Shown here one piece after another: positions 1-64,000 of a stretch of 64,000 nt of DNA. Each line of letters opens with the position of its first letter. Position 1 is the stretch's first letter. The translations under genes were made by a program, and so were the position numbers. Source of the stretch: Lytechinus pictus (Eukaryota); assembly GCF_037042905.1 (NCBI RefSeq), contig NC_087251.1, positions 42,286,001 to 42,350,000 on the forward strand, read 5' to 3'. A model generated the notes under the pieces. That model saw only the letters and a program-made list of their open reading frames with translations. It was not told the DNA's origin and ran no database searches.

Positions 1-474
1 TGGAAAATTCTGAGTATCCATCTCGCCCTGGAAAGAACATCCTTTGTAAACCCATCTCGAACATGTTCATGGTACGGCTGCACAATCCAGCTGCCGACCA
101 TACCTCAAGAAGTATTCTCCTTAACTGTCGTGGCGTTGGCAAAGAAGAATTCTTCTTGCCAGCCACTGCCACAGTAAGAGAAGACGGAAGCGAAACATGA
201 AATATAACACCCGGTGCCTCAGGGTATATACTTAAATCACTTCACGATCATCCACTTCTGACACAGTATGGAGCGTCGTTTTGGTGCTGATGACCCTTTG
301 GAAATAGCACACAGAAGGATGCATCTCATCTTATAAGTACACCATCAGGGAAGAGTAGAAGCTTCATGCAGCTACTTAACATCACACCTGAAGTCAGGTA
401 AAACGTTCCCTTACACTACTTCTTGTGATGTCAGCCAATCATCGGCGAGTAAAGCTACTATGAATAGACGGCTG

Positions 475-3400
475 CTACTCTGGCAGATCATACAGCCTCC
501 GGGCGTTTGCATTCGCCACAGTGACCACCTCCGCAAAGGTCTCCCCCCTTCTCATGGCTATCTCCTGAGCGAGCTCACCTAAATACATCGGTGTATTCGC
601 CACAAGGGATCGCTCCGGTTTAAAATAAGGAGCGTCCGTTTCCAGAAGCAACCTTTCGATAGGGGTGTCCCTCAGCGCCTCATCCTGGGGGCCAGTGAAT
701 TCTCTCACCTTCCCAGTGAAGCCGAAGTGCGCTTGGGGAAATGCTTCGGACCATGTTCTCCGCTCCTCTTTAACAAGTGTGCAGCAATGGAGGTGAATCC
801 TCTGTTGGCGGGAACAATGTTCAACCAGCAATCGTCGGACATCTCGACTGATAGCAGTAGCACATGGATCCCCGGATGACCCACATAGATGTAGGATTAA
901 CACCTTATTCCCTATGGGCATTCCCAGAATCTGGACCAACATGTTGATCTGCTGCTCCCAAGTCGTGTCCGGGATAGAGAAGTCCAGGCCCAGCTCAGAG
1001 ACACCACAAATCCGCTGGCTGGCCAATAGCGATCGCAGTCTACTCATCGTCTTCATAGTCACATTAGTGGCCTTCTTTGGATGAATACCAACTGCCACCT
1101 TCCAACGGGGGTCCTCTGGATACCAGATTCTTCCCCACCGTTGGGGGTCACAATAGTTAAGTATCCCTCCGGTCACACGCACCGGTTTCAATGGTAACCG
1201 CCCGGGACAAGCTCGAAGAGCAGAAACCCCTCGCATTCCCAGGTATTGCTCCATTCTGTCCAGGTGTAAGTGACTATCAATGACGATTGGAAGTCTATCC
1301 CCCTCATACTCCACCGGTGCTAGGCTAATTCGCCCCGCACGGCTAATGCCTGTCTCGACAGATTCGGATGACCTTGGTCTAACCACAGGAGAAGGTGACG
1401 CAACAGGAGACTCGTCTCTCTGCCATTCACCAACCTGGCCCCGCGGTGTAGCCGATGTAGCAATTGCCCCCTCAGCTCCCAACGGAACCTCTGATACCCC
1501 TGGGGTTATTAACTCGGCAGCCTCAACCTGACTCACTGAAGGAGCCTGGGAGTCCTCGAGTTCCTCAACAGAGATTATCCGAACTACTTCCACCCTCTGG
1601 AAAGACTCGACAACTTCAGTTTGTGTATTAGGCTTGGGCGAGACAGCTCCAAACCTTGGGAAACCTTCGGCCAAACTCAACCTAGGTTTCCGCTCCGGGG
1701 ATGGTTGGGCAATTGTGGGCACTGCCATTCTTTGAGGGAGGAAGTTGCCCAGCCCTCGTAACACAGCAGGCGGCCTCACCACCCCAGAAGTACCTGGTTG
1801 AAACGGAATACCAGCTCTAATGAACCCCTGTTCAAATGCAGAACGATGGAAGCCTAATGACGGGTTAACTAATAACTCCCTCCAATGTTCTTCTGGTGTT
1901 GGGTCTGACAAACCTTGTGCAGACACATCGCCCAATTTAGATCCAGCGGAAGGGAAGTTCATTCGGGAGTTGATAAGCAACTCCTCAGAACATTCACCTG
2001 GCTTTAGATCTGGAACAGGTGACTCACTCTGCACCTCCATGGGAATCTCTGACAACTCCTCAGAGAATGCCTCTACCAACGGAGGAATAGAGCTGGTCTC
2101 ATCTGCAGCATCCGCTTCTTCCGACTTACTCATGGCAGCGTTCGCCTTGTCGGGCCGACTGGCTGTCGCGGAAATCTCATGTGTAACTGGTCTACCAGCT
2201 GCCGCGGGAATCTCTCGCGTATCTGGTCTACCGGCAGCCGCGGGAATCTCACGCGTCTCTTGCCTACCAGCTGCCGCAGGAACTTCGCGTGTATCTGGCC
2301 TACCAGCTGCCGCAGGAACTTCGCGCCGGTCCAGACGAATAGCTGCTTCAGGAACTTCACTTGTGCTTAAGCTTCCCAGCCTCTGTATACGGTCGTGGTC
2401 CTCGCGTCCCAGCCTTCCAACAAGAAAACCCAGGACTCTCCAATGAAGGAGTGCTACCCAGGAACTCAAGGGACGTAGGCCTATTGGGACCGAGCATACC
2501 CAGCCCCGATTCCTCGCAAAGGCGACCATCTCGGCCTGCCCTCGCTGCGCGAGTATCCCCACAGGGTCCGGACGTTCTAGGTCGACAAACCGACACAGAG
2601 CATCCAATGACCTCGTACCGATTAAACAAAGGGAGATCTCCCTCAGCACTTCCTCTCGCAACCCACTAAGCTCCGGGCGAGGATAGACGCTGCCCTTATG
2701 CTCCTGGAAGCACTCCGGCATATGAGAATAAACATGCCATTTCAGCTTCCCAGCGATCGCCCCACAACCTGGTATTAAACAGGGCTTCTTATAATAGCGG
2801 CCCCTCTTTTCCGGTATTTCATGGGTTGGGGCCTCTGAAGGCATGGAGGAAAACCCAGCGTGGGTCTTTCTTCCACCTGCAGGGGGCCCACCGCGGTTAC
2901 GACTGCGGGAGCGGTTCCGCTTCCGGGACTCATCCCTACCCTGATGCGAACCTTGTGTGGTTGGGTGGACATTCCGGTCCGCCCCAACTGAAGACTGCCT
3001 GGGAGCCGGTCCGGGAGGCGGCCCGGCAAATTCGCCCCGCCTTTCCTCTCGAGGACGGCTCACTCTGGCAGCTGAAGCTAGATGCGGACGATCGCCCGGC
3101 CTGGCTTCGGATGTTCCGCTCCGAGTGGAGGCAGTGGGAGTTGGGCCATCACTTTCGCTCTGCCTCGCTCCTGCCGTGCCACTCTGAGTAGACGCATTTG
3201 GAGTTGGGCGAGCATCCTCGCTCTGCCTCCCTCCTGATCTTTCTGTCTGAGTGGGCGAACTAGGAGCCGGTTGGGCACCTTCGCCCTCCCTGGCTGCTGG
3301 CTCACCTCTCTGAGTAGATGCTCCGTAGGTGGAGCGAGCACTTCCGCTCTGCCCGGCACCTGAGCCACTACTCCGTGTAGAAGCTGGGGTCGAGCGAACA

Positions 3401-4212
3401 TCATCGCTCCGCTCAGTTTCTCGCTGATTATTTCTGCTCTGCGGCTGGCCAGAGGTTGGGCGATTGGCATTAGCCTGCCCGCCTTGTGGCTTGTTACCAG
3501 GCGCGGGCCTCTTCTTACGTCTCCCACCACGGGGACGCCTCCCACGCCCAGATTGCCCAGAGCTAGAAGCACCAGTCGGCTGACGGAAAGTCCCGCTGGA
3601 TGCCCTTCCAGCCGGCGGGTTGGCTGGGTGAACTCCACCTTGCCTTCCTGCCGCTGCATTAGCGGAACCTGCCGACTGGCCGCTTGCCGACGCGTTGGGT
3701 GATGCCGGCGGGCGAGGCACTCCACTCCGCCTGCCTGCCGCAACGTCCGCGTATGAGGCCGACTGGCGAAATCCCCCGCCCTGACTGCCTCGCTGGCCGC
3801 GGTTCTGATAGGGCCTGGGAGCCGGAATCTCCTCACCCGGGGTCCAGAACTCCTCGTCCCTATCCGGAGGGATGGACCACGCGTCCATTCCATTTTCAGG
3901 TACGTTGCGGTGCCCCTCAATGTTGGGGACATTTAACAATACCCATTCGCGGTCTTTGAAAGTGGTTCGTAACAACCAATACTGGAGGCAGGTTATCCAC
4001 CTCCAGTCCCTACGCCTGAATGCAAAGCCATGTTGCTTTACGGCCAAGCATTCAAACGCCATTGGTGACATTTTTGTCGCCGAACGGCACACAAATGAAG
4101 GGTGGAGCAAAATGCCCGCATCTGTGGCCCCCCACACCCTTCTCCTCACTTGCTCCTCGTAATCTTCTCCCTCCTCCTCCGCACGTCTAGGTCGTCTTGG
4201 CCATCGGGGCAT
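475..4212 (-). CDS. Retrotransposon ORF3 (1245 aa): long R/S/G/Q-rich disordered region, C2H2-like zinc motif, 12-aa repeats, C-terminal TatD-family DNase domain (~478-1290)
   Basis: TatD motifs IDSHLHLD, VGIHP, SELGLD, ILHL, IHLHC, FGFTG, LLLETDAPY, NARRLY; motif CLIPGC-x9-HVYSH at ~2720-2781. Confidence 0.9.
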   Translation of the reverse strand: MPRWPRRPRRAEEEGEDYEEQVRRRVWGATDAGILLHPSFVCRSATKMSPMAFECLAVKQHGFAFRRRDWRWITCLQYWLLRTTFKDREWVLLNVPNIEGHRNVPENGMDAWSIPPDRDEEFWTPGEEIPAPRPYQNRGQRGSQGGGFRQSASYADVAAGRRSGVPRPPASPNASASGQSAGSANAAAGRQGGVHPANPPAGRASSGTFRQPTGASSSGQSGRGRRPRGGRRKKRPAPGNKPQGGQANANRPTSGQPQSRNNQRETERSDDVRSTPASTRSSGSGAGQSGSARSTYGASTQRGEPAAREGEGAQPAPSSPTQTERSGGRQSEDARPTPNASTQSGTAGARQSESDGPTPTASTRSGTSEARPGDRPHLASAARVSRPREERRGEFAGPPPGPAPRQSSVGADRNVHPTTQGSHQGRDESRKRNRSRSRNRGGPPAGGRKTHAGFSSMPSEAPTHEIPEKRGRYYKKPCLIPGCGAIAGKLKWHVYSHMPECFQEHKGSVYPRPELSGLREEVLREISLCLIGTRSLDALCRFVDLERPDPVGILAQRGQAEMVAFARNRGWVCSVPIGLRPLSSWVALLHWRVLGFLVGRLGREDHDRIQRLGSLSTSEVPEAAIRLDRREVPAAAGRPDTREVPAAAGRQETREIPAAAGRPDTREIPAAAGRPVTHEISATASRPDKANAAMSKSEEADAADETSSIPPLVEAFSEELSEIPMEVQSESPVPDLKPGECSEELLINSRMNFPSAGSKLGDVSAQGLSDPTPEEHWRELLVNPSLGFHRSAFEQGFIRAGIPFQPGTSGVVRPPAVLRGLGNFLPQRMAVPTIAQPSPERKPRLSLAEGFPRFGAVSPKPNTQTEVVESFQRVEVVRIISVEELEDSQAPSVSQVEAAELITPGVSEVPLGAEGAIATSATPRGQVGEWQRDESPVASPSPVVRPRSSESVETGISRAGRISLAPVEYEGDRLPIVIDSHLHLDRMEQYLGMRGVSALRACPGRLPLKPVRVTGGILNYCDPQRWGRIWYPEDPRWKVAVGIHPKKATNVTMKTMSRLRSLLASQRICGVSELGLDFSIPDTTWEQQINMLVQILGMPIGNKVLILHLCGSSGDPCATAISRDVRRLLVEHCSRQQRIHLHCCTLVKEERRTWSEAFPQAHFGFTGKVREFTGPQDEALRDTPIERLLLETDAPYFKPERSLVANTPMYLGELAQEIAMRRGETFAEVVTVANANARRLYDLPE
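2160..2360 (-). repeat. About 5 copies of a 36-bp coding tandem repeat in ORF3 (REV/IPAAAGRPDT)
   Basis: Repeats visible in both the DNA and the translation. Confidence 0.85.
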
Positions 4213-4356: not shown

Positions 4357-7300
4357 CTAGGTCCTAGATGCGCATCCCGGACAATGGTATTCTTCATCCA
4401 ACCCCAGCATCTCGCCTTCCTCTTCGGACATTCCCACGCACTGACCGTGGAACCATTCTTCGCATTTATCACACTGGATCATAAATTTTCCTCCCCAGGG
4501 CTTCCTGCAAAGGCAATACACCTCCTCGTGCCTGTGCTTCTTCCCTTTCTTATTCGGAGGAATAGTCCGATCTCTGCATGGTTTCATGCGGTCATGGTTC
4601 ACCGTCATCCTAACATTCTTATACTCGACCCGGTACAGGAATGGAGACAGTCTCTCCACAATCAATGCAGGACCTTTCCAGGGAGGGCAAAGTTTCTTGC
4701 ACTTCCCTTTGGATTGAGCCGTGTCCAACAAGTATACTCGTTCACCTACCTCATACTTCCTCTGGAACACTTTCATGTCATAGTCCTTTTTCTGTCTTTT
4801 TTGGGTCTCTTTTAGATGAGACCTGGCCAGCGAGTGTACATCGGCTAATGTCTTACGCAGATTCGCACAGTACTCCTCGCTTTCTACTGGTTGTGCTGCT
4901 TGCGGCATCGGGAACAGTAAGTCCACCGGTTGGGTCACTTCCCTTCCAAGCATTAGCCGGTTGGGAGTAAATCCGGTGCTTCTATTCACTGTTGATCGTA
5001 TGGCCCCTGCGATTTGAGGAACAAACTCGTCCCAACTTCGCTGGTTCTTGCCTACGAAACAACGCACTGCATCCATCAGCGTCCGGTTAAATCGCTCCAC
5101 CTGACCATTGGCCGAAGGACGATAAGCCGTTGTTCTCGCCTTATGTATTTGCAACATCTTACACATGCTTGTAAACAAACGACTCTCGAAATTACGGCCT
5201 TGGTCGGTGAAGACCTGCAGGGGACACCCGAAACGGCTGAAGAAATGGTCCACCGCTGCTCGGGCTGTCACTTCTGCGGTCTGTGAAGGCAAAGGTATGC
5301 ACTCCACCCATTTCGTGAATTGATCAACCATTACCAGGATATTCTCGTTCCCATTCGCCGTTTTTGGCAGGGGACCCAAGAAATCCAAGTGCACCCTTTC
5401 CATGGGGTAGCCAGCATGATAGCTGATCATAGGGTTCCTCCCGTGTCTGGCAGACTTCTTGCATTGGTTACAGGTTGGACATTTGCGGATAAAGTCACTC
5501 ACATCCTTCCCCATACCATACCAGAAGAACCGCCTCTTCATCTTGGAGATCACCCTTACATTGCCAGCATGCCCTGCCAAGGGCAAATCATGGTTAAGTC
5601 TAACCAATTCTTCCCTCATAGAGTGAGGAATGAGAAGTAAATCCCCTTCGCCCTTGTTCTGGTAAATTACCCCATTTTCCAGGTGAAATGTATCCTTGTT
5701 GATCCACAGGTTCTTCTGCTCGGGACTCCATAACATCATAGTTCCCTCGCTAGGTTCTTCACCTGTGGCCAACCATTCCCGTAATGGAAGAAATTCTGGA
5801 TCTTTGTCTTGTTCTTCTTTCAATCTCACGGCTGGGGGTGTTTCTGGCTCCTCGACCACCTGGGAGATATTCAGTTCCTCGGTGATCGGTCTGGAGCTCT
5901 CAACTACCTCGTCCGACCGTAAATCCGATCTCACGGCCGGGGGTGTTTCTGGCTCTTCGACCGCCTGGGAGATATTCTGTTCCTCGGCGATCAGCCTTGA
6001 GCTCTCAACTACCTCTTCCGACCGTAGATCAGGGTCCGATTTCACCACCATGTGGGTTGTCCAAAACCCTGACTCAAGGTTTTGGCCAATGGTGTTTTTC
6101 CGTTCTCCTGTGACTGATGCCAAGGGAACTACGTCATCCACCTCTTCTACAAAAGGAGCCCAGTTCCGGTGAGCCTTCTCACAGTAGGGGCACCCACCAC
6201 AAGGAAGATCTTCTAACTTGAATCCTAGCCGGAATTCTTCGCAGAAGAGCTCAGTGTCAGGAACTCGAGACAATGCGTCCGCATTCCCATGCTGTTTCCC
6301 CGGGCGGTGTATCACCTTCATCTGATACTGACTTAGTTCTTCCAACCATCGGGCTATTTGCCCTTGAGGATGTTTGAAGTTCATCAGCCAGATGAGACTA
6401 CTGTGATCTGTGCGCACCAAAAACGAGTTACCTAAAAGGTAGTGGCGGTACTGCCGTGTGAACTTCACCACTGCTAGGAGTTCTCTCCTTGTCACACAGT
6501 ACCTTCTCTGTTCGGGAGACAGTGATATGCTTCCGTAGGCCACTACTCTCTCTTGTCCATCCTGAACCTGGAGTAACTCCGCGCCGATAGCCTCATTCGA
6601 AGCATCGGTGTCCAGGATGAATGGATCCTGCAAGTTGGGCATGGTCAACACTGGGGCTGAGGTAAGCAGCTCCTTTATAGAGTCAAACGCCTCCTGTTGT
6701 TCAGGTCCCCAGCAGAACATGTTTTTCCCAGTGATCTTGTACAGAGGAACAGCCGCCGCTGCATAATTCTTGATGAAGGTCCTGTGATAGTTCACTAACC
6801 CCAAGAATCTCTCCACTTGTTTCGTGTTGCGCGGCGCTGGCCAATTCCTCACTGCTTCAATCTGATCTGGTTTCAGAGAGATCTTGTTTTCTCCTACATT
6901 CCGGCCCAGGAACTCTACCTCGCGCCGGAACAATTCACACTTCTTTGGTTTCAGCTTCAACTTGAAGCTTCTAAACCTTTCTAAGACCTCCCTCAAGTTA
7001 TTCATGTGATCCTCAAAAGACTTTCCCAGAACTACTACATCATCGAGGAATGCTAGGACTATGTCCCAATTCAAACCTCTTAAGATTAAGTCCATGGCTC
7101 GTGAGAAAGTCGCGGGAGCGTTGCACAATCCAAAACCCATCCTCACAAATTCGTACAATCCGTACTTTGTGGTGAAAGCAGTCTTCTTGCGATCCTCTTC
7201 CGCTATTTGGACTTGCCAATACGCAGAGTTCGCATCCAGCTTGGAAAACCAACGCGTCCCGGAAAGGGTATCCAGACACTCCTCGATATTCGGGAGGGGA

Positions 7301-8592
7301 TATACATCTTTCTGAGTGATCTGATTGAGTCCTCGGTAATCTACACACCAGCGGACTCCCCCATCTCTCTTCCGTACCAGTACAGGTGCAGACGCCCACT
7401 CCGATTGTGAAGGCTGAATAACCCCAGCCTCCTTCATTCGTTTCAGCACTGCCTTTTCTTCTTCTGCGAAACGCATCGGCGTTCTTCGCATCTTGTGCTT
7501 TACTGGGGCTGATGTACCTGTCTCTATCTTGTGCTCAATAGCTGTAAATTCTCCTAAGTCGAAGTCGTGACGGGCAAACGCGTCTCCGAACTCCCCCAGG
7601 ATACGCCTAAGTTCAGCTTCCTGTTCAGAGTTCAAGAGTTCCGAAGATCGGTCATACAAATCCTGTAAATGTTCTGGCACCTCTTCCGCCACGTCCTCTG
7701 TTAAGCAGTTGACTTTAGGTTCCAGCTCTTGAGGCGCCGAATGTGACCTGGTTTCCTCATCTCTTTCTGGAAGAGAAGATGGCACCTGAGCCACAGCCAC
7801 TGCCTCGAAGACCCGGCCTATTATCTTGTTGCCCTCCAGATGGACTACTCTGTCGGTTGGGTTCAAAACATACAGTTGAATGAGCGTACCTCCGTCATGT
7901 AGCGACCTAGGTGCTAGAGCGGGTAATACGGATGATGGCTCAAAAACACAAGCGTTCATCCTCTGGTCTATTACCCCGGTGACACGCTTCAGTGTGTTGG
8001 GTGGGATGGTGGTCCGGTGTGAGGTGCTAACTCTGGCTACTCGTCCACCATTCCGACCAACTCCGAACTTCATGGGTATCCGTTCATCCCCCATAAGCAG
8101 CTCCTTACTACTTATAAGGATATCGATTGAATGCTGCTCAAGAAAATCTAGCCCCAACAGCATGTCATCCGCTATCGATGCTGTGTAAATGTTACCGGGA
8201 AAACACTTTCTTCCAATTCCTACCTCCACTGGGCCGATCACTGCTCCTTGCAAGCGTGTATCTCGGCCAGCGGTGCTCAAAACAACTTCCTTCACCAGGG
8301 GCGGGGCAGGGTCAAGTAGTTTCATCACTCGATCCGAGATAATGGTCACTTCTGCAGCAGAATCTACCACTGCGTCAAGTGTAACGCCATTCACCTTTAC
8401 CTCTACTCTCAGCATCGAGGACGAACGAAGTTGACAGACCACTACCTCCTGCGGAGATTCCAACTCCGGTTCTTCCCATTGGGTAGGGAGGACGTTGCTC
8501 TCTTCTTCACCAGCTGATAATTCTACCTCTGAGGAATGCGGATCCTCGTCTTCCAGTTCCAGTTGGTTTACATATTCCGCTAACACCTTCAT
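4357..8592 (-). CDS. pol: Gypsy Pol polyprotein: aspartic protease, reverse transcriptase, RNase H, integrase, C-terminal PHD finger; probably translated by -1 frameshift from gag (frame open from ~8745)
   Basis: PR AVVDSAAEVT; RT RWCVDYRGLN, KTAFTT, FGLCNAPATF, FLDD; RH ILDTDAS, TDHSSL; IN HDLPLAGH...CPTC, VHLDFLGP, TDQGRNF, NGQVERFN, WKGP; PHD YCLC...MIQCDKCEEWFHGQC...CPGC. Confidence 0.97.
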   Translation of the reverse strand: MKVLAEYVNQLELEDEDPHSSEVELSAGEEESNVLPTQWEEPELESPQEVVVCQLRSSSMLRVEVKVNGVTLDAVVDSAAEVTIISDRVMKLLDPAPPLVKEVVLSTAGRDTRLQGAVIGPVEVGIGRKCFPGNIYTASIADDMLLGLDFLEQHSIDILISSKELLMGDERIPMKFGVGRNGGRVARVSTSHRTTIPPNTLKRVTGVIDQRMNACVFEPSSVLPALAPRSLHDGGTLIQLYVLNPTDRVVHLEGNKIIGRVFEAVAVAQVPSSLPERDEETRSHSAPQELEPKVNCLTEDVAEEVPEHLQDLYDRSSELLNSEQEAELRRILGEFGDAFARHDFDLGEFTAIEHKIETGTSAPVKHKMRRTPMRFAEEEKAVLKRMKEAGVIQPSQSEWASAPVLVRKRDGGVRWCVDYRGLNQITQKDVYPLPNIEECLDTLSGTRWFSKLDANSAYWQVQIAEEDRKKTAFTTKYGLYEFVRMGFGLCNAPATFSRAMDLILRGLNWDIVLAFLDDVVVLGKSFEDHMNNLREVLERFRSFKLKLKPKKCELFRREVEFLGRNVGENKISLKPDQIEAVRNWPAPRNTKQVERFLGLVNYHRTFIKNYAAAAVPLYKITGKNMFCWGPEQQEAFDSIKELLTSAPVLTMPNLQDPFILDTDASNEAIGAELLQVQDGQERVVAYGSISLSPEQRRYCVTRRELLAVVKFTRQYRHYLLGNSFLVRTDHSSLIWLMNFKHPQGQIARWLEELSQYQMKVIHRPGKQHGNADALSRVPDTELFCEEFRLGFKLEDLPCGGCPYCEKAHRNWAPFVEEVDDVVPLASVTGERKNTIGQNLESGFWTTHMVVKSDPDLRSEEVVESSRLIAEEQNISQAVEEPETPPAVRSDLRSDEVVESSRPITEELNISQVVEEPETPPAVRLKEEQDKDPEFLPLREWLATGEEPSEGTMMLWSPEQKNLWINKDTFHLENGVIYQNKGEGDLLLIPHSMREELVRLNHDLPLAGHAGNVRVISKMKRRFFWYGMGKDVSDFIRKCPTCNQCKKSARHGRNPMISYHAGYPMERVHLDFLGPLPKTANGNENILVMVDQFTKWVECIPLPSQTAEVTARAAVDHFFSRFGCPLQVFTDQGRNFESRLFTSMCKMLQIHKARTTAYRPSANGQVERFNRTLMDAVRCFVGKNQRSWDEFVPQIAGAIRSTVNRSTGFTPNRLMLGREVTQPVDLLFPMPQAAQPVESEEYCANLRKTLADVHSLARSHLKETQKRQKKDYDMKVFQRKYEVGERVYLLDTAQSKGKCKKLCPPWKGPALIVERLSPFLYRVEYKNVRMTVNHDRMKPCRDRTIPPNKKGKKHRHEEVYCLCRKPWGGKFMIQCDKCEEWFHGQCVGMSEEEGEMLGLDEEYHCPGCASRT
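5823..6030 (-). repeat. 105-bp (35-aa) in-frame tandem duplication in the RNase H-integrase linker
   Basis: DLRSEEVVESSRLIAEEQNISQAVEEPETPPAVR followed by DLRSDEVVESSRPITEELNISQVVEEPETPPAVR. Confidence 0.9.
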
Positions 8593-8645
8593 AAACTCTG
8601 GAAGACCGGCTACACCTTCCTCAGGTTTGTCTGTAGTTGGGTGAC

Positions 8646-10853
8646 CTATTGTTGCTCGAGCCAGGGTGTGGCCTCCCTCTCCTCCTCTGACTCGCTCGAG
8701 TTTGACGCCTCCTCTTCCCTGAGGACCGAAGCGGAAGCCACGGGGCTTTTATCAGGACAATCTTTCCTAAAATGTCCCGGCTTACCACACTTGAAACAGC
8801 CCTCAGTCCTGGGTGCAGGGGATGGCGATCTCCCTCGTCTTCCTATTTGTGACATTCTTCTATTAAGATTATCCATGGAGGACTGCAGTTTCTCGAATTT
8901 CTCATCCCAATCGGAAACCCTCTCCTCCAAAGCCCGCGTGCGATTATCCAACGCTGACACCAACTTGGTCAAGCTTTCACCCTCTGAAGATATCTTACTC
9001 GAAGTGCCAGGCACTGAGCTGTTCTTCTCCAGCCGGGGTTTATTAGCTGGCGGGGGGGCACCAATCTGTTGGATCACTGCCTCTTCAGATGACCAAGCAT
9101 CTTGTGGCCAATGGACTATCTTGACCTCTGGTCTCCTCTGCCTGCCATACACAACCTTTTTCGAATGTATATACCAAGTCACATGATCCACAGCCTTCTC
9201 AACTGAGTCCGGCCGTAAGTTCAGGGCGTGCAAACCAGCTTCCCGTTCAGAACACCCCTGACAAAACTTCAATACCCCTTGTCTCTGTACTTGAGACTCC
9301 GGAACCCCTGGGAAAGTTTTAACAGCCAGGCTGACCACACGGTCAGCCCACTCCATGATTCCTTCCTCAGCCAGCTGGTGCGCCCGCATGAACTCCATTT
9401 GAGCTACCTCTAGAGGATCATCCGCGCCAAACCGGCGCTCCATCCTCCTCACCAGATCTTCAAAAGACATGTCTCTGTCACGCGACATCAGTAATGAGAA
9501 ATAGTCACTTCCAATACCTTTCATGCACCACCACATCTGATATTTCCTTTGAATGGAGGACCAGCCCTGCTCATCCGCATAGGCCATGAACTTGAGGTAA
9601 AACCCTCTCCAGCTCCCTCGACCATCATAGTTAATGGTCTTGGGGAGCGAACCCATGTGGCTCAATGACTGTGAACCCATTTGCCTGGAGCGGCCAGTAG
9701 TCTTGTGTGTAGAGATATTCCCCGAAGACTGGCTAGTGGTGGGGCTCTGGGGTAGCTGATGTGTTGCGGCCTGGTGCGGCTGGAACGCCCTTGACTGTGG
9801 TGGTGCCGGCTGGCAAGCTGTTGTTTGGACTTGCATCTGATTAGTCTGTGCATGTCGAGATGATGGGACTTGTGATACCGGCGTTGTTGTCATCTGATAG
9901 GATCCAACCGCTGCCGGTTGCACTGGCGGTGCCGCCTGCGGCTGCGGCAGTGGAGCCGCTGGTAGCTGTGGCGGCGCCTGTGGCGGTACCTGTGACGTTG
10001 CGGGCGCCTGCGCGCACCTCAGCGGTACACGCGTATACCATACAGTAGGCATGCGCGGCACTGGGGCCGCTGTTACTCTTGGCGGAGGGCCAGCCGATAA
10101 CTGCGGCGGTGGACCCACTGGGTCTACAAGAGGTTGGGTCGTCGCACTTTGTGGTGATTCTGTCGCTAACAGCTGGGCCGGTGGAACCAATGGGGCTCGT
10201 GGTGTTGCCGGCACTGTGGGTGGGCCAGATAGCCGCCTGACTGAAACATCATACTCCGACAAGTTGGGACCTGGTCTGGTCTGATGTAAGATCTGATGGG
10301 GTTCTTGGCCCCCAGTGCCTGGTTGTGAAGTTGGAGCTTGCACCCTTTCCAGCTGGGCTGGGCGTAAGACCTGCTGTGAGGGATTAACTTGCAACCCCTC
10401 CTGTAAAACTCTACCACCAAAGCCTGGGTGGGACTCTGACTGCCACCACCTCTCGGATACTCCTGGAGGGGGCGGATACCTCTGCCACCGATAAAATGCT
10501 GGGCTAACCTCCTGCACCGGGCTGGGTGCATGGGAAGACTGAAACAACTCTCCATCCGCTCCTATAGGTTCACCCATGATACCTCTATCATGATCCAGCA
10601 ACCCTTGTGCAAGCCCAGTAGACTGTTGTGATGCCGTACTAAAGGGCGTGAAGTCAAGCTGATCCAAAACCTCTTCCGGCAATGAAACCAATGACGAGAA
10701 ATAATCCCTTGTGATACCACCTTTACGTTCCAACAGCAAGCCTGCCACAGCATGACTTACTCCTGGAATGCCCACGAGTTCGTCATATGAACACTCGTTC
10801 ACCGGAAGTGGGCCTTCAATAACCTCAAAAGGGCTTACTATATCTGACAACAT
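8646..10853 (-). CDS. gag: Gag-like protein (735 aa): N-terminal HhH-like motif, P/Q-rich linker, capsid-like core, coiled coil, CCHC zinc knuckle
   Basis: YDGRGSWRGFYLKF-type Gag core; CFKCGKPGHFRKDC knuckle; lies directly upstream of pol. Confidence 0.92.
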   Translation of the reverse strand: MLSDIVSPFEVIEGPLPVNECSYDELVGIPGVSHAVAGLLLERKGGITRDYFSSLVSLPEEVLDQLDFTPFSTASQQSTGLAQGLLDHDRGIMGEPIGADGELFQSSHAPSPVQEVSPAFYRWQRYPPPPGVSERWWQSESHPGFGGRVLQEGLQVNPSQQVLRPAQLERVQAPTSQPGTGGQEPHQILHQTRPGPNLSEYDVSVRRLSGPPTVPATPRAPLVPPAQLLATESPQSATTQPLVDPVGPPPQLSAGPPPRVTAAPVPRMPTVWYTRVPLRCAQAPATSQVPPQAPPQLPAAPLPQPQAAPPVQPAAVGSYQMTTTPVSQVPSSRHAQTNQMQVQTTACQPAPPQSRAFQPHQAATHQLPQSPTTSQSSGNISTHKTTGRSRQMGSQSLSHMGSLPKTINYDGRGSWRGFYLKFMAYADEQGWSSIQRKYQMWWCMKGIGSDYFSLLMSRDRDMSFEDLVRRMERRFGADDPLEVAQMEFMRAHQLAEEGIMEWADRVVSLAVKTFPGVPESQVQRQGVLKFCQGCSEREAGLHALNLRPDSVEKAVDHVTWYIHSKKVVYGRQRRPEVKIVHWPQDAWSSEEAVIQQIGAPPPANKPRLEKNSSVPGTSSKISSEGESLTKLVSALDNRTRALEERVSDWDEKFEKLQSSMDNLNRRMSQIGRRGRSPSPAPRTEGCFKCGKPGHFRKDCPDKSPVASASVLREEEASNSSESEEEREATPWLEQQ

Positions 10854-11083
10854 GATGTATCAATTAAAAATAACAACTTTCCAAAACACAAAATTACCTT
10901 AAAACCCAATTGGGTAACACCCCACTCCCCGTCAAACAAAAAGGCGAACCACCGGGGTGAGAAAAAACCCTAAAGACAGAAATCAGCACCTGCAAAGAAA
11001 AATATACCAACGCTTAGTCGGCCTAAACTAACAAGTACCAACTCTTCGGTGGTCTAAGAAAAAAACGAAGTCCAAACACAGCA

Positions 11084-11538
11084 GAATTAATCTCTAAATG
11101 TAGTAGAAAAAATAATCCAGGAAAGGTGTCCCTTTAAGTTCAGAAAACACAAGAATTAATTTCTAGATGTAGAAAAAATAATTCGAGAAAGGTGTCCCTT
11201 TAACTTCAAAAGACCCACGAATTAATATCTAGATGTAGAAAAAATAATTCGAAAAAGGTGTCCCTTTAACTTCAGAAAACCCCCGAATTAATATCTAAAT
11301 GTAGAAAAAATAATTCAGGAAAGGTGTCCCGTTAAGTTTAGAAAACACAAGAATTAATTTCTAAATGCAGAAAAATAATTCTAAAACGGTGTCCCTTTAA
11401 CTTCAAAAGACCCACGAATTAATATCTAGATGTAGAAAAAATAATTCGAGAAAGGTGTCCCTTTAACTTCAAAAGACCCACGAATTAATATCTAGATGTA
11501 GAAAAAATAATTCGAAAAAGATGTCCCTTTAACTTCAA
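11084..11538. repeat. Leader tandem array A: 7 units of ~66 bp
   Basis: Unit GAATTAATWTCTAGATGTAGAAAAAATAATTCGARAAAGGTGTCCCTTTAACTTCA... starts at ~11084, 11153, 11219, 11285, 11351, 11416, 11482. Confidence 0.93.
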
Positions 11539-11746
11539 ACACCAAAGTCAAATGCTAGATTCTGAAGAAGAATTCAAGATCACGTAAAGGACCCTAGCCC
11601 GGTAAGCTAGGAAAGTGTGCATCAAACGTCCAAGTCAAGAAGGTAACAGAACCTTGTAGCTCTAATTGTAGTCCAAATGTAAACACACCAGAAAAATAAA
11701 TACTAACACCTATCGTTAGTCTAAAAAAATATAACAACAACAGGGG

Positions 11747-12355
11747 GACTAAGACGGGAGACTTATCCCTTTAATCCAAAATTAATCCTTATAACAGTCA
11801 CAAATAATCCGGAAATAACTAGACTAAACGGGGAGACTTATCCCTTTAATCTAAAAATATTTTTGTAAAGAGCCAAAAAATATTTTTATACCGCTAAACT
11901 AAACAGGGAGACTTATCCCTTTAATCCAGAAATATTTTTGTAAAGAGCCAAAAAATATTGTATACAGCTAGACCAAACAGGGAGACTTATCCCTTTATTC
12001 TAGAAATATGGTTGCAGAAAGCTGAAAAATATTTTATTACAGCTAAACTAAAGAGGGAGACTTATCCCTTTAATCTCAAAATATTTTTGTAAAGAGCCAA
12101 AAAATATTTTATACAGCTAAACTGAACAGGGAGACTTATCCCTTTAATCTAGAAAATATTTTTGTAAAGAGCCAATAAATATTTTATAACAGCTATACTA
12201 AAGAGGGAGACTTATCCCTTTAATCTCAAAATAGTTTTGTAAAAAGCTGAAAAATATTTTATCACAGCTAAACTAAAGAGGGAGACTTATCCCTTTAATC
12301 CACAGATATTTTTGTAAAAAATAATGTGAGTCAGGAACTATGTCCCTTTAATCCA
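11747..12355. repeat. Leader tandem array B: 8 units of ~75 bp plus a partial unit
   Basis: Core GGGAGACTTATCCCTTTA recurs at ~11756, 11831, 11906, 11980, 12055, 12130, 12205, 12280. Confidence 0.93.
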
Positions 12356-13141: not shown

Positions 13142-13570
13142 TGTTGTTCGAGTGCTCAGTTCGAACAATCTTAAAAGTGGAAATGTACTGCACAAAAGAC
13201 GAAATACATGCATCACATATATTCAGTCAAAAGTATATTGACTCACCGTAAGTTCTGTCCCACGATGAATCCAGTAGAACAACTGAACAGGTAGAAAACA
13301 GCAATATAACTCAGCAATAACAACAGTATAACTTCTCAATAGGTTGGTTCCAGTACATCTCTCAGCAGTATCCAAAGATGGCGATGCCGTCCGCATCCTC
13401 CATCACGGGGTGTCGAATCCCTGCTTCTGATTGGTCACCTCTGGTGAAGTTGCACGCGGCACTACATCTTGGCTTGCCATGAGGTCTCCAGCAGCAGACG
13501 ACGATGGTAGCAGACGACAAGGATCAGTAGCTGAAAACGCCAAATCGGCCTGGCCGTTTTCACTACAACA
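13142..13570 (-). repeat. 5' LTR (429 bp)
   Basis: Inverted ends TGTTGT...ACAACA abut the PBS; contains a CCAAT box (minus, ~13430), a YY1-like CGCCATCTT (minus, ~13375-13383) and a GTGAGT donor (minus, 13241-13246). Confidence 0.85.
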
Positions 13571-16500
13571 TGTACGAGTATGACTGTCAGTGGACCAAGG
13601 AGTCGGACTAGATCTAGATCTACTCTCGGTCAATAATGGCAATGAAGTCTTAGCCAGGAATAAAAGTCATAGTCAGACATCAAAAATTTCTAAACCGATT
13701 TTAGGGTTTAGAACCGAAGCTTTACTTTCTAGGTCTAGATAGATCGAGAGTCCATCTTTAGTCTAGATCTAGACCTAATTTAGATACATGAATGCTGTCG
13801 CACAGCATTGAGTCTCGTTGGACTAGATCTATACTTTCTTACAAATAGATCTAGACCTAGTGCATGAGATTATGAAATTATGTTAAAATCTAATGAAATA
13901 AGATTCGGAAATAAAAAGATCCAGATTTTTTTTTTTTTTGGGGGGGGGGGGGGCAGACATGTGAAAAAATTTAGAGAAACCTAGAATTCAGAAAGCGAGG
14001 GCCAGAAGCGACCAATATTACCTAGGGCCGTTTTGTGCATTTTCTAAAGTAAAATTGAAGGATGTCATGCAATTCTCTTTTTGATGAAGGTTTTCACATT
14101 TCTGATTTCAGCTCTTACCCAAACCCCTCCCCCTATACATACGGCCATGAAAAAGATCACTTCTTATTATTGTTCTCTCTCTTTCACAAACAGGTTGAGT
14201 TTGAAGAACAAGAAAAACAGTAGAGGTCTATATATGGTTCAAGATGATGATCATAAGTGCATGCATCATTTTGCAGATTCTCATCCAGGTATAAAACTTA
14301 AACTAACCCATACAAAATTACAGATACATTGCATGCATTGAATGTTAACCATGTTTACATTAAATAAAAATAATCTGAGCTACAAAGAGGTAGGATCTGT
14401 AATGAATATACACTTCTTAAATATACAGGCTCTCGAGTCTAAAATAGAACCAATGCCAAAAGTTATGTACCTTGGACAAATTTATAAAATAAGGTCATGT
14501 CCTTGATCTACTAGTAATTAAATGGCCTTTTTATTTCCTATTTGTTTATAAACAAAGTGTAGGGATTGATTTTGTACTTATATTTCTTTCCACTCTTATC
14601 CAGGAATCATCCCCTTTTTCTAATAGAACATCCCTCATTTATATTCACCCTTTTCATCCTAACTTCCTATTCTTCATGTATAGCTCTCTCTTACACATTA
14701 ACTGCTGTACACTCCGTACACAAGGTTCTTTGGTATCAATTCACTCCACCATCCTTCATACAGCTTTCTTCACTCCTCTCTCTCTCTCTCACTCTCCTTC
14801 CTTGGTTATAATGTTAAGTTGATGCACTCAAGCTTAGATAATAATTTGCATATAGTTTGAATGGTCAATATATATCCTTTGTTTGTATATTTGAATATTC
14901 AGTTATACTTTGTTAATTGATTTACATTTATATGAATATTGATGTGCCTTAATTAATTTGCATGGAATGTTACAAAGAATGCAACAAGGCTTTGAGTCAT
15001 TAAAATCTGGGAGTTGGCCAGTAAGTTATCAACCTGACAACATGTCTGCTGGGCTGCCTCTGTGTTAAGAGTACTAGAAATGAGATATTGTCAGAACCCC
15101 GTACTACACAAAGCAATATTTATTTTTCATATTTTACAAAATTCATTTTATGCATTCTTTAGTGTGATATTCATATTTCATATTTGTAGATTTACGATTT
15201 TTTTTAAATCTTGTTATTTTACATTTTGTCCAATAGGATGATGCAGTTTTACAATTTCCATGGAGGTGATTGATGATGATAAACAATTGGTGAAGTAGGC
15301 CTAATAGAACAGTGATAGGACCACAAAGAGAAATACAACCTACAGCAGTTATATGAGTGAGTTAATAAGTGATTATTTTTAATAATGGGGGGTTTTCACA
15401 ATATTTTTAGGCAACAAATAGACCTGCCTTTGAAAAAAACATTTCAATTCTGTTTTTAGGTTATAGATAGGTGTCGTTTTTATTCGCAGATCAAAATATT
15501 CTGTGCAACAAAACATCATCTTTAATTCTGACTATTATATATAATTTATATATGTTAATTCATATATTCATATTTATGGGAAATCTCTGACATTTTTTTT
15601 ATATAGTACATGTAGTTATAATGGAGAGTGGTATGCAAACTGCATAGAACAGGTTTAAGTGATATGCTTTGTAGAAGTACAAGTTTATAATTAGTAGAAG
15701 TAAGATTTCCTATGTTATGTGATGAAGAAATTTATATACCGGTATGTATAGTCTTACTTTTCTTAAAACATTTATGTTTTACAAATCATGACAATTTTAA
15801 TTTAAATTCATTGATTTTCTTTCTCTATTTTTTCAATCTGCAGGACTGGTGTAACAGATGTTTTCATTCAAGAAACCCAACAAATTGAAGAGTGACTTAG
15901 CTTAGGAAGCACTTGATAAAGATGGAAAAGGTTTTTTTTTTTCAAGTCCAATTTTTTTTTTTTAAATTATCATCACAACCCCAAATTCATGAAGTATGAA
16001 ATTTCCTGTCGATTTTCATTAAAACTGGTTGCAAAAGGAAAAGCTATAAACATACAAATAGGAGCGGCGAAGTGAAGTTGAAAGTGGGGGGGGGGGCACA
16101 GGGAAAATGCTGTATTATGTGAAATTTTAAAGAAGTTGCGAGAGAGCAAAATTTTGACATTTTAAAAAAGAAAATCCAATTTTGTGATAGATTTCGACAA
16201 AATATTCAGAATGATATATTTCACCCTTTTTTTTTGGGGGGGGGGCAAGAGTCCTTCAGGCCCCCCCCCCCCTCCATCTGTAGTGTACGAAACTGCTTAT
16301 CTACCCCCACTCACATGAATTATTAAACTTAATGCACAAAGGATTTCCTTATTGTTTTCTTGTTTCAAAGGGCACTCGTCATTCTTTAGGAGCACTTTTC
16401 TTGGATAAATGGGGGCAGTTATTCGAGAAAGGGCACTTACAAGAAGGCGAGGGGGTACTTTTTAACACTTAAAACGGGCCCTCAGATGAAAGGGCACAGA

Positions 16501-47396: not shown

Positions 47397-64000
<16,604 letters not shown>

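Follow-up and report, generated by a model that had tools for sequence, protein, structure and literature searches.

An antisense gag fragment of a partner subfamily in the 3′ UTR of a Lytechinus pictus Ty3/Gypsy element, probably left by a copying slip

In the 64,000-nt stretch of Lytechinus pictus DNA analyzed here (contig NC_087251.1, positions 42,286,001 to 42,350,000; hereafter the window), the 3′ untranslated region (UTR) of a young Ty3/Gypsy element carries an inverted 41-nt piece of gag, whose donor is not the element itself (type A), but a partner subfamily that we call B. The second complete A copy in this assembly carries a different antisense piece of B gag that was acquired independently. 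The pieces probably go back to a copying slip of reverse transcriptase (RT), while a small-RNA defence of one transposon against another is a live possibility that can be tested.

The antisense piece in the window copy

The piece lies at positions 268..308 of the plus strand and is antisense in the RNA of the element. It consists of 33 nt of new sequence plus the microhomologies at its ends, and it takes the place of 89 nt of ancestral 3′ UTR. Its agreement with B gag, always in the gag sense, is 41/41 in two copies, 40/41 in a third and 38/41 in the fourth, as compared to 32/41 at the homologous site of the element's own gag (9403..9443, minus strand), where three of the nine differing positions would still pair, as G-U wobbles, in an RNA duplex. 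A reversed control pattern of the 41-mer gave no matches, and the match to B gag is not a product of chance.

A preliminary description of this DNA had aligned a slightly longer stretch, 268-312, with minus-strand positions 9443-9399 of the element's own gag, and its counts were reproduced (34/45 nt and 13/15 amino acids identical, with 9 of the 11 differing bases in third codon positions; a tblastn comparison inside the window gave E 6e-4). The homology holds through 308, however, and 309-312 are ordinary UTR. It had further been proposed that the piece stems from gag coding sequence in a sister lineage and not from a recent self-duplication, and that a genome search might reveal a sister family with a near-exact gag match. 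Both proposals were borne out: the search found subfamily B, and we reject recent self-duplication in view of the 41/41 positions shared with B and the 32/41 shared with self, as well as of the divergence between the A and B gag cores (dS 0.73, dN/dS 0.09).

At the left end of the piece, ancestral UTR and donor gag share a 2-nt microhomology (268..269, plus strand), and at the right end a 6-nt microhomology (303..308, plus strand) with imperfect likeness further on; these would be the exit and the entry junction, respectively. About 30 nt away from the piece, in the interval 333..349, there is a crossover from a B-derived 3′ end of the C1/C3 type to an A-type body of the C17 type.

The piece is present in one of the eight family copies, and the seven others have one shared ancestral filler at the same place. 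This is thus not a slot with contents varying from copy to copy, and the second capture (on C17) is ~400 nt off. Uniqueness to this copy, which the preliminary description had named as speaking against its own reading, was indeed found, within this assembly (1/8 copies). Nor did further antisense transposon snippets, for which a look to the left of the window had been suggested, turn up in the 821 nt there, which match just the eight family copies. Apart from the family copies, the remaining UTR matches a single isolated stretch of 61 nt on C5 (C5:1840765-1840825), which is an 87% match to UTR positions 304-364 with no surrounding element.

In sequencing run X3, a 93-nt contig spans window positions 240-332 with zero differences. 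Beyond either junction it has 30 letters, where our rule for bridging asks for 31, and the run may derive from the assembled animal; even so, the contig argues against an assembly error. The raw RNA runs X9 and X10, of which ~6 in 100 reads were read, gave 21 and 9 matched reads, none over the piece, and do not bear on function either way. X5, from another study and RNA by our guess, contains the ancestral slot and B gag and no junction contig, though contigs cannot prove absence.

The element, its family and the partner subfamily B

By its sequence features, the carrier of the piece is a Ty3/Gypsy LTR retrotransposon on the minus strand of the window: it has two direct LTRs with TG...CA ends, a target-site duplication, a primer site and a polypurine tract, and the pol domains are in the order protease-RT-RNase H-integrase. 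Read along the minus strand, gag (8646..10853; type A, 735 aa) has a CCHC zinc knuckle, pol (4357..8592; 1411 aa) encodes protease, RT, RNase H, integrase and a PHD finger, and ORF3 (475..4212; 1245 aa) ends in a TatD DNase domain. The proximal 3′ UTR takes up 1..474, and a further ~825 nt beyond the left edge of the window lead to the polypurine tract and the 3′ LTR. The LTRs, the 4-bp target duplication, the CCHC gag and the pol order are those of Ty3/Gypsy elements in general, whereas the PHD finger after the integrase and the TatD third ORF set it apart from a typical member; both recur across many Gypsy families of the same genome. A literature search for TatD together with Ty3/Gypsy-type terms returned no paper.

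The 5′ LTR (13142..13567, minus strand; 426 nt) is identical to the 3′ LTR, which together with the 4-bp target-site duplication (13568-13571) indicates that the window copy is very young. An empty insertion site is apparently present in run X3 and, with the caution that a repetitive flank calls for, suggests an insertion that is still polymorphic. The window copy and the C3 copy at 63.8 Mb are inserted ~550 bp apart, at homologous positions of one host repeat family and in opposite orientation (compared flanks: window 13582-14138 and ~8200-8750 of the left-hand stretch L021, with 3450-4630 of L024 for the C3 copy).

Some further features of this DNA may be recorded here. The 5′ leader has two tandem arrays (window 11074-11543 and 11747-12320, with units of ~66-70 and 75 nt), and the copy number of both differs between element copies. 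RNA reads from runs X9 (15) and X10 (8) break at one LTR position (L001:354) and continue into unrelated sequence; on the element strand this position reads as a splice donor, as of an LTR-driven spliced transcript. Outside of the element, at window 56298-56849, a long CAT/ATG-type trinucleotide tract gives rise to spurious His-rich and Met-rich ORFs.

Eight copies of the family with two LTRs were found in the genome assembly, plus one older copy with only a 5′ LTR. Their gags are of two types, A (window copy on C7, C17, C1 and C8) and B (C3 at 63.8 Mb, C5, C16 and the older C3 copy at 76.0 Mb), with 84-86% identity over 600 nt. The substitution pattern in the gag core, as given above, marks this as a long-standing divergence under purifying selection. 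All four A-gag copies are A/B mosaics, and pol and ORF3 are both intact only in the window copy and in C17; in C1, pol is frameshifted and ORF3 is missing, and in C8 the A gag is followed by the second ORF of B. C17 and the window copy differ by 46 substitutions in 10.8 kb, and each has an identical LTR pair.

Subfamily B is without RT, RNase H and integrase. After gag, it has an ORF of 620-680 aa with a protease-like part, which by inspection has no catalytic Asp, and then tandem repeats of a 21-aa motif. This second ORF is kept open (L024:6719-8680, minus strand; also in L026, L028 and L030), with six tandem copies of the motif, which derives from the region following the protease of A. A Pfam search gave nothing significant, neither in the second ORF of B nor in the A region repeated there. 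Its product could be a decoy or a dominant-negative protein. The LTRs of A and B are 98-100% identical, and the 3′ ends of the two are mosaics of each other, which suggests that B depends on the enzymes of A and is regularly co-packaged with it. The preliminary description had cast the sister as a competitor. A sister lineage it is, but not an independent one, given that it is a partner without RT that shares its LTRs with A and has recombined with A repeatedly. Among the young copies in this assembly, B accounts for three and complete A for two.

A second capture and the distribution of such pieces

The 3′ UTR of the C17 copy holds a different inverted piece (C17:14926392-14926437), which comes from the C-terminal end of B gag and matches the C5 B copy at 38/38 and A gag at 31/38 positions. 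As with the window piece (41/41 against 32/41), the transfer ran from donor to carrier, the donor being in-frame coding sequence. The event replaced 395 nt, with microhomologies of 3 and ~4-5 nt. Both captures brought in ~33 new nt, both are antisense and both are in the 3′ UTR, ~400 nt apart; since each copy keeps the ancestral sequence at the site of the other's piece, they are independent of each other. The C17 junction is known from the assembly and was not seen in the sequencing runs examined. At the right junction, there is one base unlike both donor and recipient, as expected of misincorporation at a template switch. An old B copy (C3:76062754-76062755) has a plain 292-nt UTR deletion, the left end of which coincides with the left breakpoint of the C17 event.

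An antisense piece of B gag is therefore present in 2/2 complete A copies and in 0/6 of the other family copies (0/4 pure B, 0/2 other mosaics; Fisher p 0.036, or 0.14 without the copy through which the phenomenon was ascertained). In an all-against-all comparison of the eight elements, the two gag pieces are the only short private stretches, next to large nested insertions in two B copies. As controls, 18 TatD-adjacent UTR stretches from six other family groups were searched for inverted gag and had none (2/2 vs 0/18, p 0.005, or 0.05 without the ascertained copy), with the proviso that these controls are imperfect, three having no own-family gag for comparison and two no sister copy. Furthermore, seven gag DNA queries, which found ~87 near-full copies (6, 18, 28, 20, 9, 3 and 3), gave no short near-identical inverted gag match beside a family copy (p 0.006, or 0.07 without the ascertained copy); each query was one representative covering ~2 kb, such that diverged pieces may escape, and an eighth was left out because it was swamped by a nested repeat. 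An isolated 39-nt match on C2 has no LTR-element coding context around it. Another pair of sister gags (L043 and L044, ~79% identical, with ~20 and 9 copies) was seen in this genome, with no inverted pieces found between them.

Origin, possible function and comparison with known systems

The account that we favour, and hold to be probable though well short of certain, is that RT left the piece as a "deletion with inverted insertion", i.e., as a by-product of a particle containing one A and one B RNA, for which no function is needed. For template switching as the mode of origin, the case is fairly strong, whereas the strand under synthesis is inferred; the sequences themselves show which donor was used and in which orientation, microhomology at the junctions, a crossover close by and that the copy is young. 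For an A body to be complete and yet have its 3′ end from B, RT has to change from the B to the A RNA within the UTR while it makes the minus strand. This synthesis would start on a B-type 3′ end and cross to the A RNA at ~333-349; RNase H would degrade the copied A RNA, and the B coding RNA would stay uncopied in the particle. The growing plus-strand end would then pair with B gag RNA via homology of 6 nt and more, copy 33 nt, and return 89 nt further on via 2 nt. Such a plus-strand slip onto sense B RNA would leave an antisense B piece in a complete A copy, with the UTR as the sole location where every ORF stays intact, and if B were silenced at all, this would be incidental. A minus strand jumping onto antisense B RNA or cDNA would be an alternative route to the same product.

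Several observations fit this slip. In both events, a co-packageable donor replaced UTR sequence (89 and 395 nt) and microhomology is found at both ends, longer on the plus-strand entry side and of 2-3 nt on the exit side. The pairing of the entry 20-mers with their donor sites ranks in the top 5.4% (window copy) and 1.5% (C17) among all positions in B gag. The UTR also rearranges readily, with deletions in 3/8 copies, and the right junction of the C17 capture (at ~143) falls within the strongest inverted repeat of the 3′ UTR (131..167). Of the B RNA remaining after such a switch, gag would make up ~28%. The captured sites have A/B identities of 0.78 and 0.83, as compared to a median of 0.80, and hence are not more discriminating than average. 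An origin before integration may be read from the adjoining A/B crossover and the identical LTRs; a second locus with the same piece was not found. A by-product thus accounts for the choice of donor, the orientation and the place of the pieces with no need of selection, and agrees with each being single-copy and with the sites being unremarkable. It is less able to account for a piece in both complete A copies and in no other, or for the lack of any in the 18 TatD-adjacent UTRs and the ~87 copies of the gag searches. Moreover, non-homologous recombination is at least 1000-fold rarer than homologous recombination according to a review (PMC3187697), such that two events in eight copies amount to a high rate. 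Deletions with insertions are a named outcome of retroviral template switching (PMC3187697, PMC5086612), and inversions are given for 2 HIV-1 proviruses (1.3% each) in a further report (PMC9278108).

A reading that we consider possible, but rather unlikely, begins with the same slip and has the pieces retained by selection as antisense piRNA or siRNA guides against B gag RNA. A transcripts would be taken up by the piRNA/siRNA machinery of the host, or would form a 41-bp duplex with B mRNA, B gag RNA would be cut fully and A gag poorly, and the RT and integrase of A would be freed from B. Each co-packaging would be a chance of a new spacer-like piece. Tentatively generalized from these sequences, A might repeatedly acquire ~40-nt antisense pieces of B gag, with RT in mixed particles serving for acquisition and host piRNA/siRNA as effector, and self would be spared by synonymous divergence. 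It is this reading that makes sense of the distribution, i.e., of independent captures of B gag in both complete A copies, antisense and in the 3′ UTR, as opposed to none in the six other copies and the 18 control UTRs; n is two, however, with one copy ascertained and p values of 0.05-0.14 for the second alone, and the RT route fixes donor and orientation without selection. Precedents exist in captures that yield antisense piRNAs, namely TART-nxf2 and the aub/piwi captures of telomeric elements (PMC7785250, PMC13534243), and B would be a plausible target, being a long-lived partner without RT, with a gag under purifying selection and with copies as young as those of A. Yet its young copies still exceed the complete A copies in this assembly. 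Computed duplex energies favour B (-92 vs -59 kcal/mol for the window piece, -95 vs -75 kcal/mol for the C17 piece), but self is not cleanly spared: 35/41 positions pair when wobble is included, and in the C17 piece 14 nt in a row agree perfectly with A gag. The former value of -59 kcal/mol also makes long-range pairing of the window piece with its own gag energetically possible. There is also a lack of spread: selection on the element needs several cycles and would be expected to leave daughters that share a piece, of which there are none in this assembly. The captured guide of the preliminary description has thus gained from the independent capture in C17, and lost some ground through the single-copy state of each piece; it is neither demonstrated nor refuted.

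Selection might also act at the level of the host, if the piece silenced the whole A+B family, by wobble-tolerant pairing with A or by a 9-kb intramolecular duplex with its own gag, such that intact A insertions with a piece would do less damage and last longer. Intact gag and pol occur together in just two copies, and a piece is present in both, pairing with the own gag is still strong by the count of 35/41 with G-U, and PIWI proteins tolerate mismatches. We nevertheless judge this self-limitation improbable, because the identical LTRs of both copies and the apparent empty site in X3 leave little time for sorting among hosts, and a rare event would require very strong selection to reach 2/2. 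Deletion, short microhomologies and templated filler fit end joining too, and a polymerase-theta-type repair by the host after integration, with a B locus or B RNA as template, would produce them. The donor is on other contigs, though, and both times it was of the only class of sequence that goes into particles together with A; moreover, the A/B crossover adjoins the junction, and the identical LTRs again mean little time since insertion, which renders host repair very improbable. We give still less credence to a functional product in the form of a 22-aa Gag-mimic peptide or a hairpin scaffold, roles that had been suggested for the 22-codon ORF and the imperfect stem around the piece. Both exist in the sequence. 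The ORF (268..336, plus strand) opens with an ATG in the gag frame, and no more than 1.9% of the positions in B gag begin an ATG; this ATG is the left microhomology, however, and the ORF appears accidental, being opposite to the genes of the element and missing from the seven other copies. A peptide would require antisense transcription, of which there is no sign, and the C17 capture starts without an ATG. As for the stem (246..325, arms 246-260 and 312-325), its arms are present in 8/8 copies, and hence it is ancestral, predates the piece and was not built for it. It is part of the best RNA fold in 6/7 other copies and absent from the minimum-energy fold of the window copy, and with z-scores of -0.5 to -1.9 across copies (-1.1 in the window copy) it folds no better than shuffles. 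With the insert simply sitting between ancestral arms at this z-score, there is no miRNA-like hairpin scaffold, nor is there a CRISPR-like spacer array, the two pieces being at different places, one per element and without repeats.

What the pieces touch upon is how autonomous families survive their parasites, given that non-autonomous elements can push autonomous partners towards extinction (PMC13269885). If the pieces are functional, they would amount to an immunity of transposon against transposon for which no new protein is required. If they are neutral, they would still reveal an uncomplicated way for mixed particles to place antisense partner gag in a transcribed element, and such antisense copies could seed antisense small RNAs outside of piRNA clusters. 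In the literature searched, which left most subscription journals outside its coverage, we found no report of an LTR element with antisense gag of its own non-autonomous partner.

In this context, the relationship of A and B resembles the hyperparasitism seen in mariner between elements that are autonomous and ones that are not, in that B is without RT and integrase, shares the LTRs of A and is co-mobilised. The available portion of that work (PMC13269885) describes no sequence-specific counter-measure by the autonomous partner, and B, for its part, keeps its own conserved Gag. A conceptual parallel, and no more than that, is offered by phage ICP1, which directs CRISPR-Cas against its PLE satellites (PMC9040626), i.e., a helper taking short sequences of its own parasite. 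Here, there are no repeats, no array, no Cas and no dedicated acquisition machinery, and any function is conjectural. Closer are the captures of nxf2 by TART-A and of aub/piwi by Drosophilid telomeric elements (PMC7785250, PMC13534243), where a foreign fragment potentially gives antisense small RNAs and captures occurred repeatedly with different boundaries. Recurrent independent capture of the same target is seen here as well, with two pieces of B gag (n=2). However, a retroelement gag here takes the place of a host piRNA gene as the target, it is an LTR element that carries the pieces, and these are of ~40 nt and single-copy; we do not assign them to the TART type, because each is found in 1/8 copies of one assembly rather than being common to many copies or fixed.

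By origin, the capture behaves like an RT-made deletion with insertion, with which it agrees in those features that could be put to the test. With the retroviral deletions that contain insertions or inversions (PMC3187697, PMC5086612, PMC9278108), it shares a deletion filled by a short co-packaged sequence, short homologies at the junctions and a neighbouring crossover. It differs from them in that the element is an endogenous Ty3/Gypsy element with all ORFs intact and the donor a subfamily without RT, and in that the event took place twice, in both complete copies.
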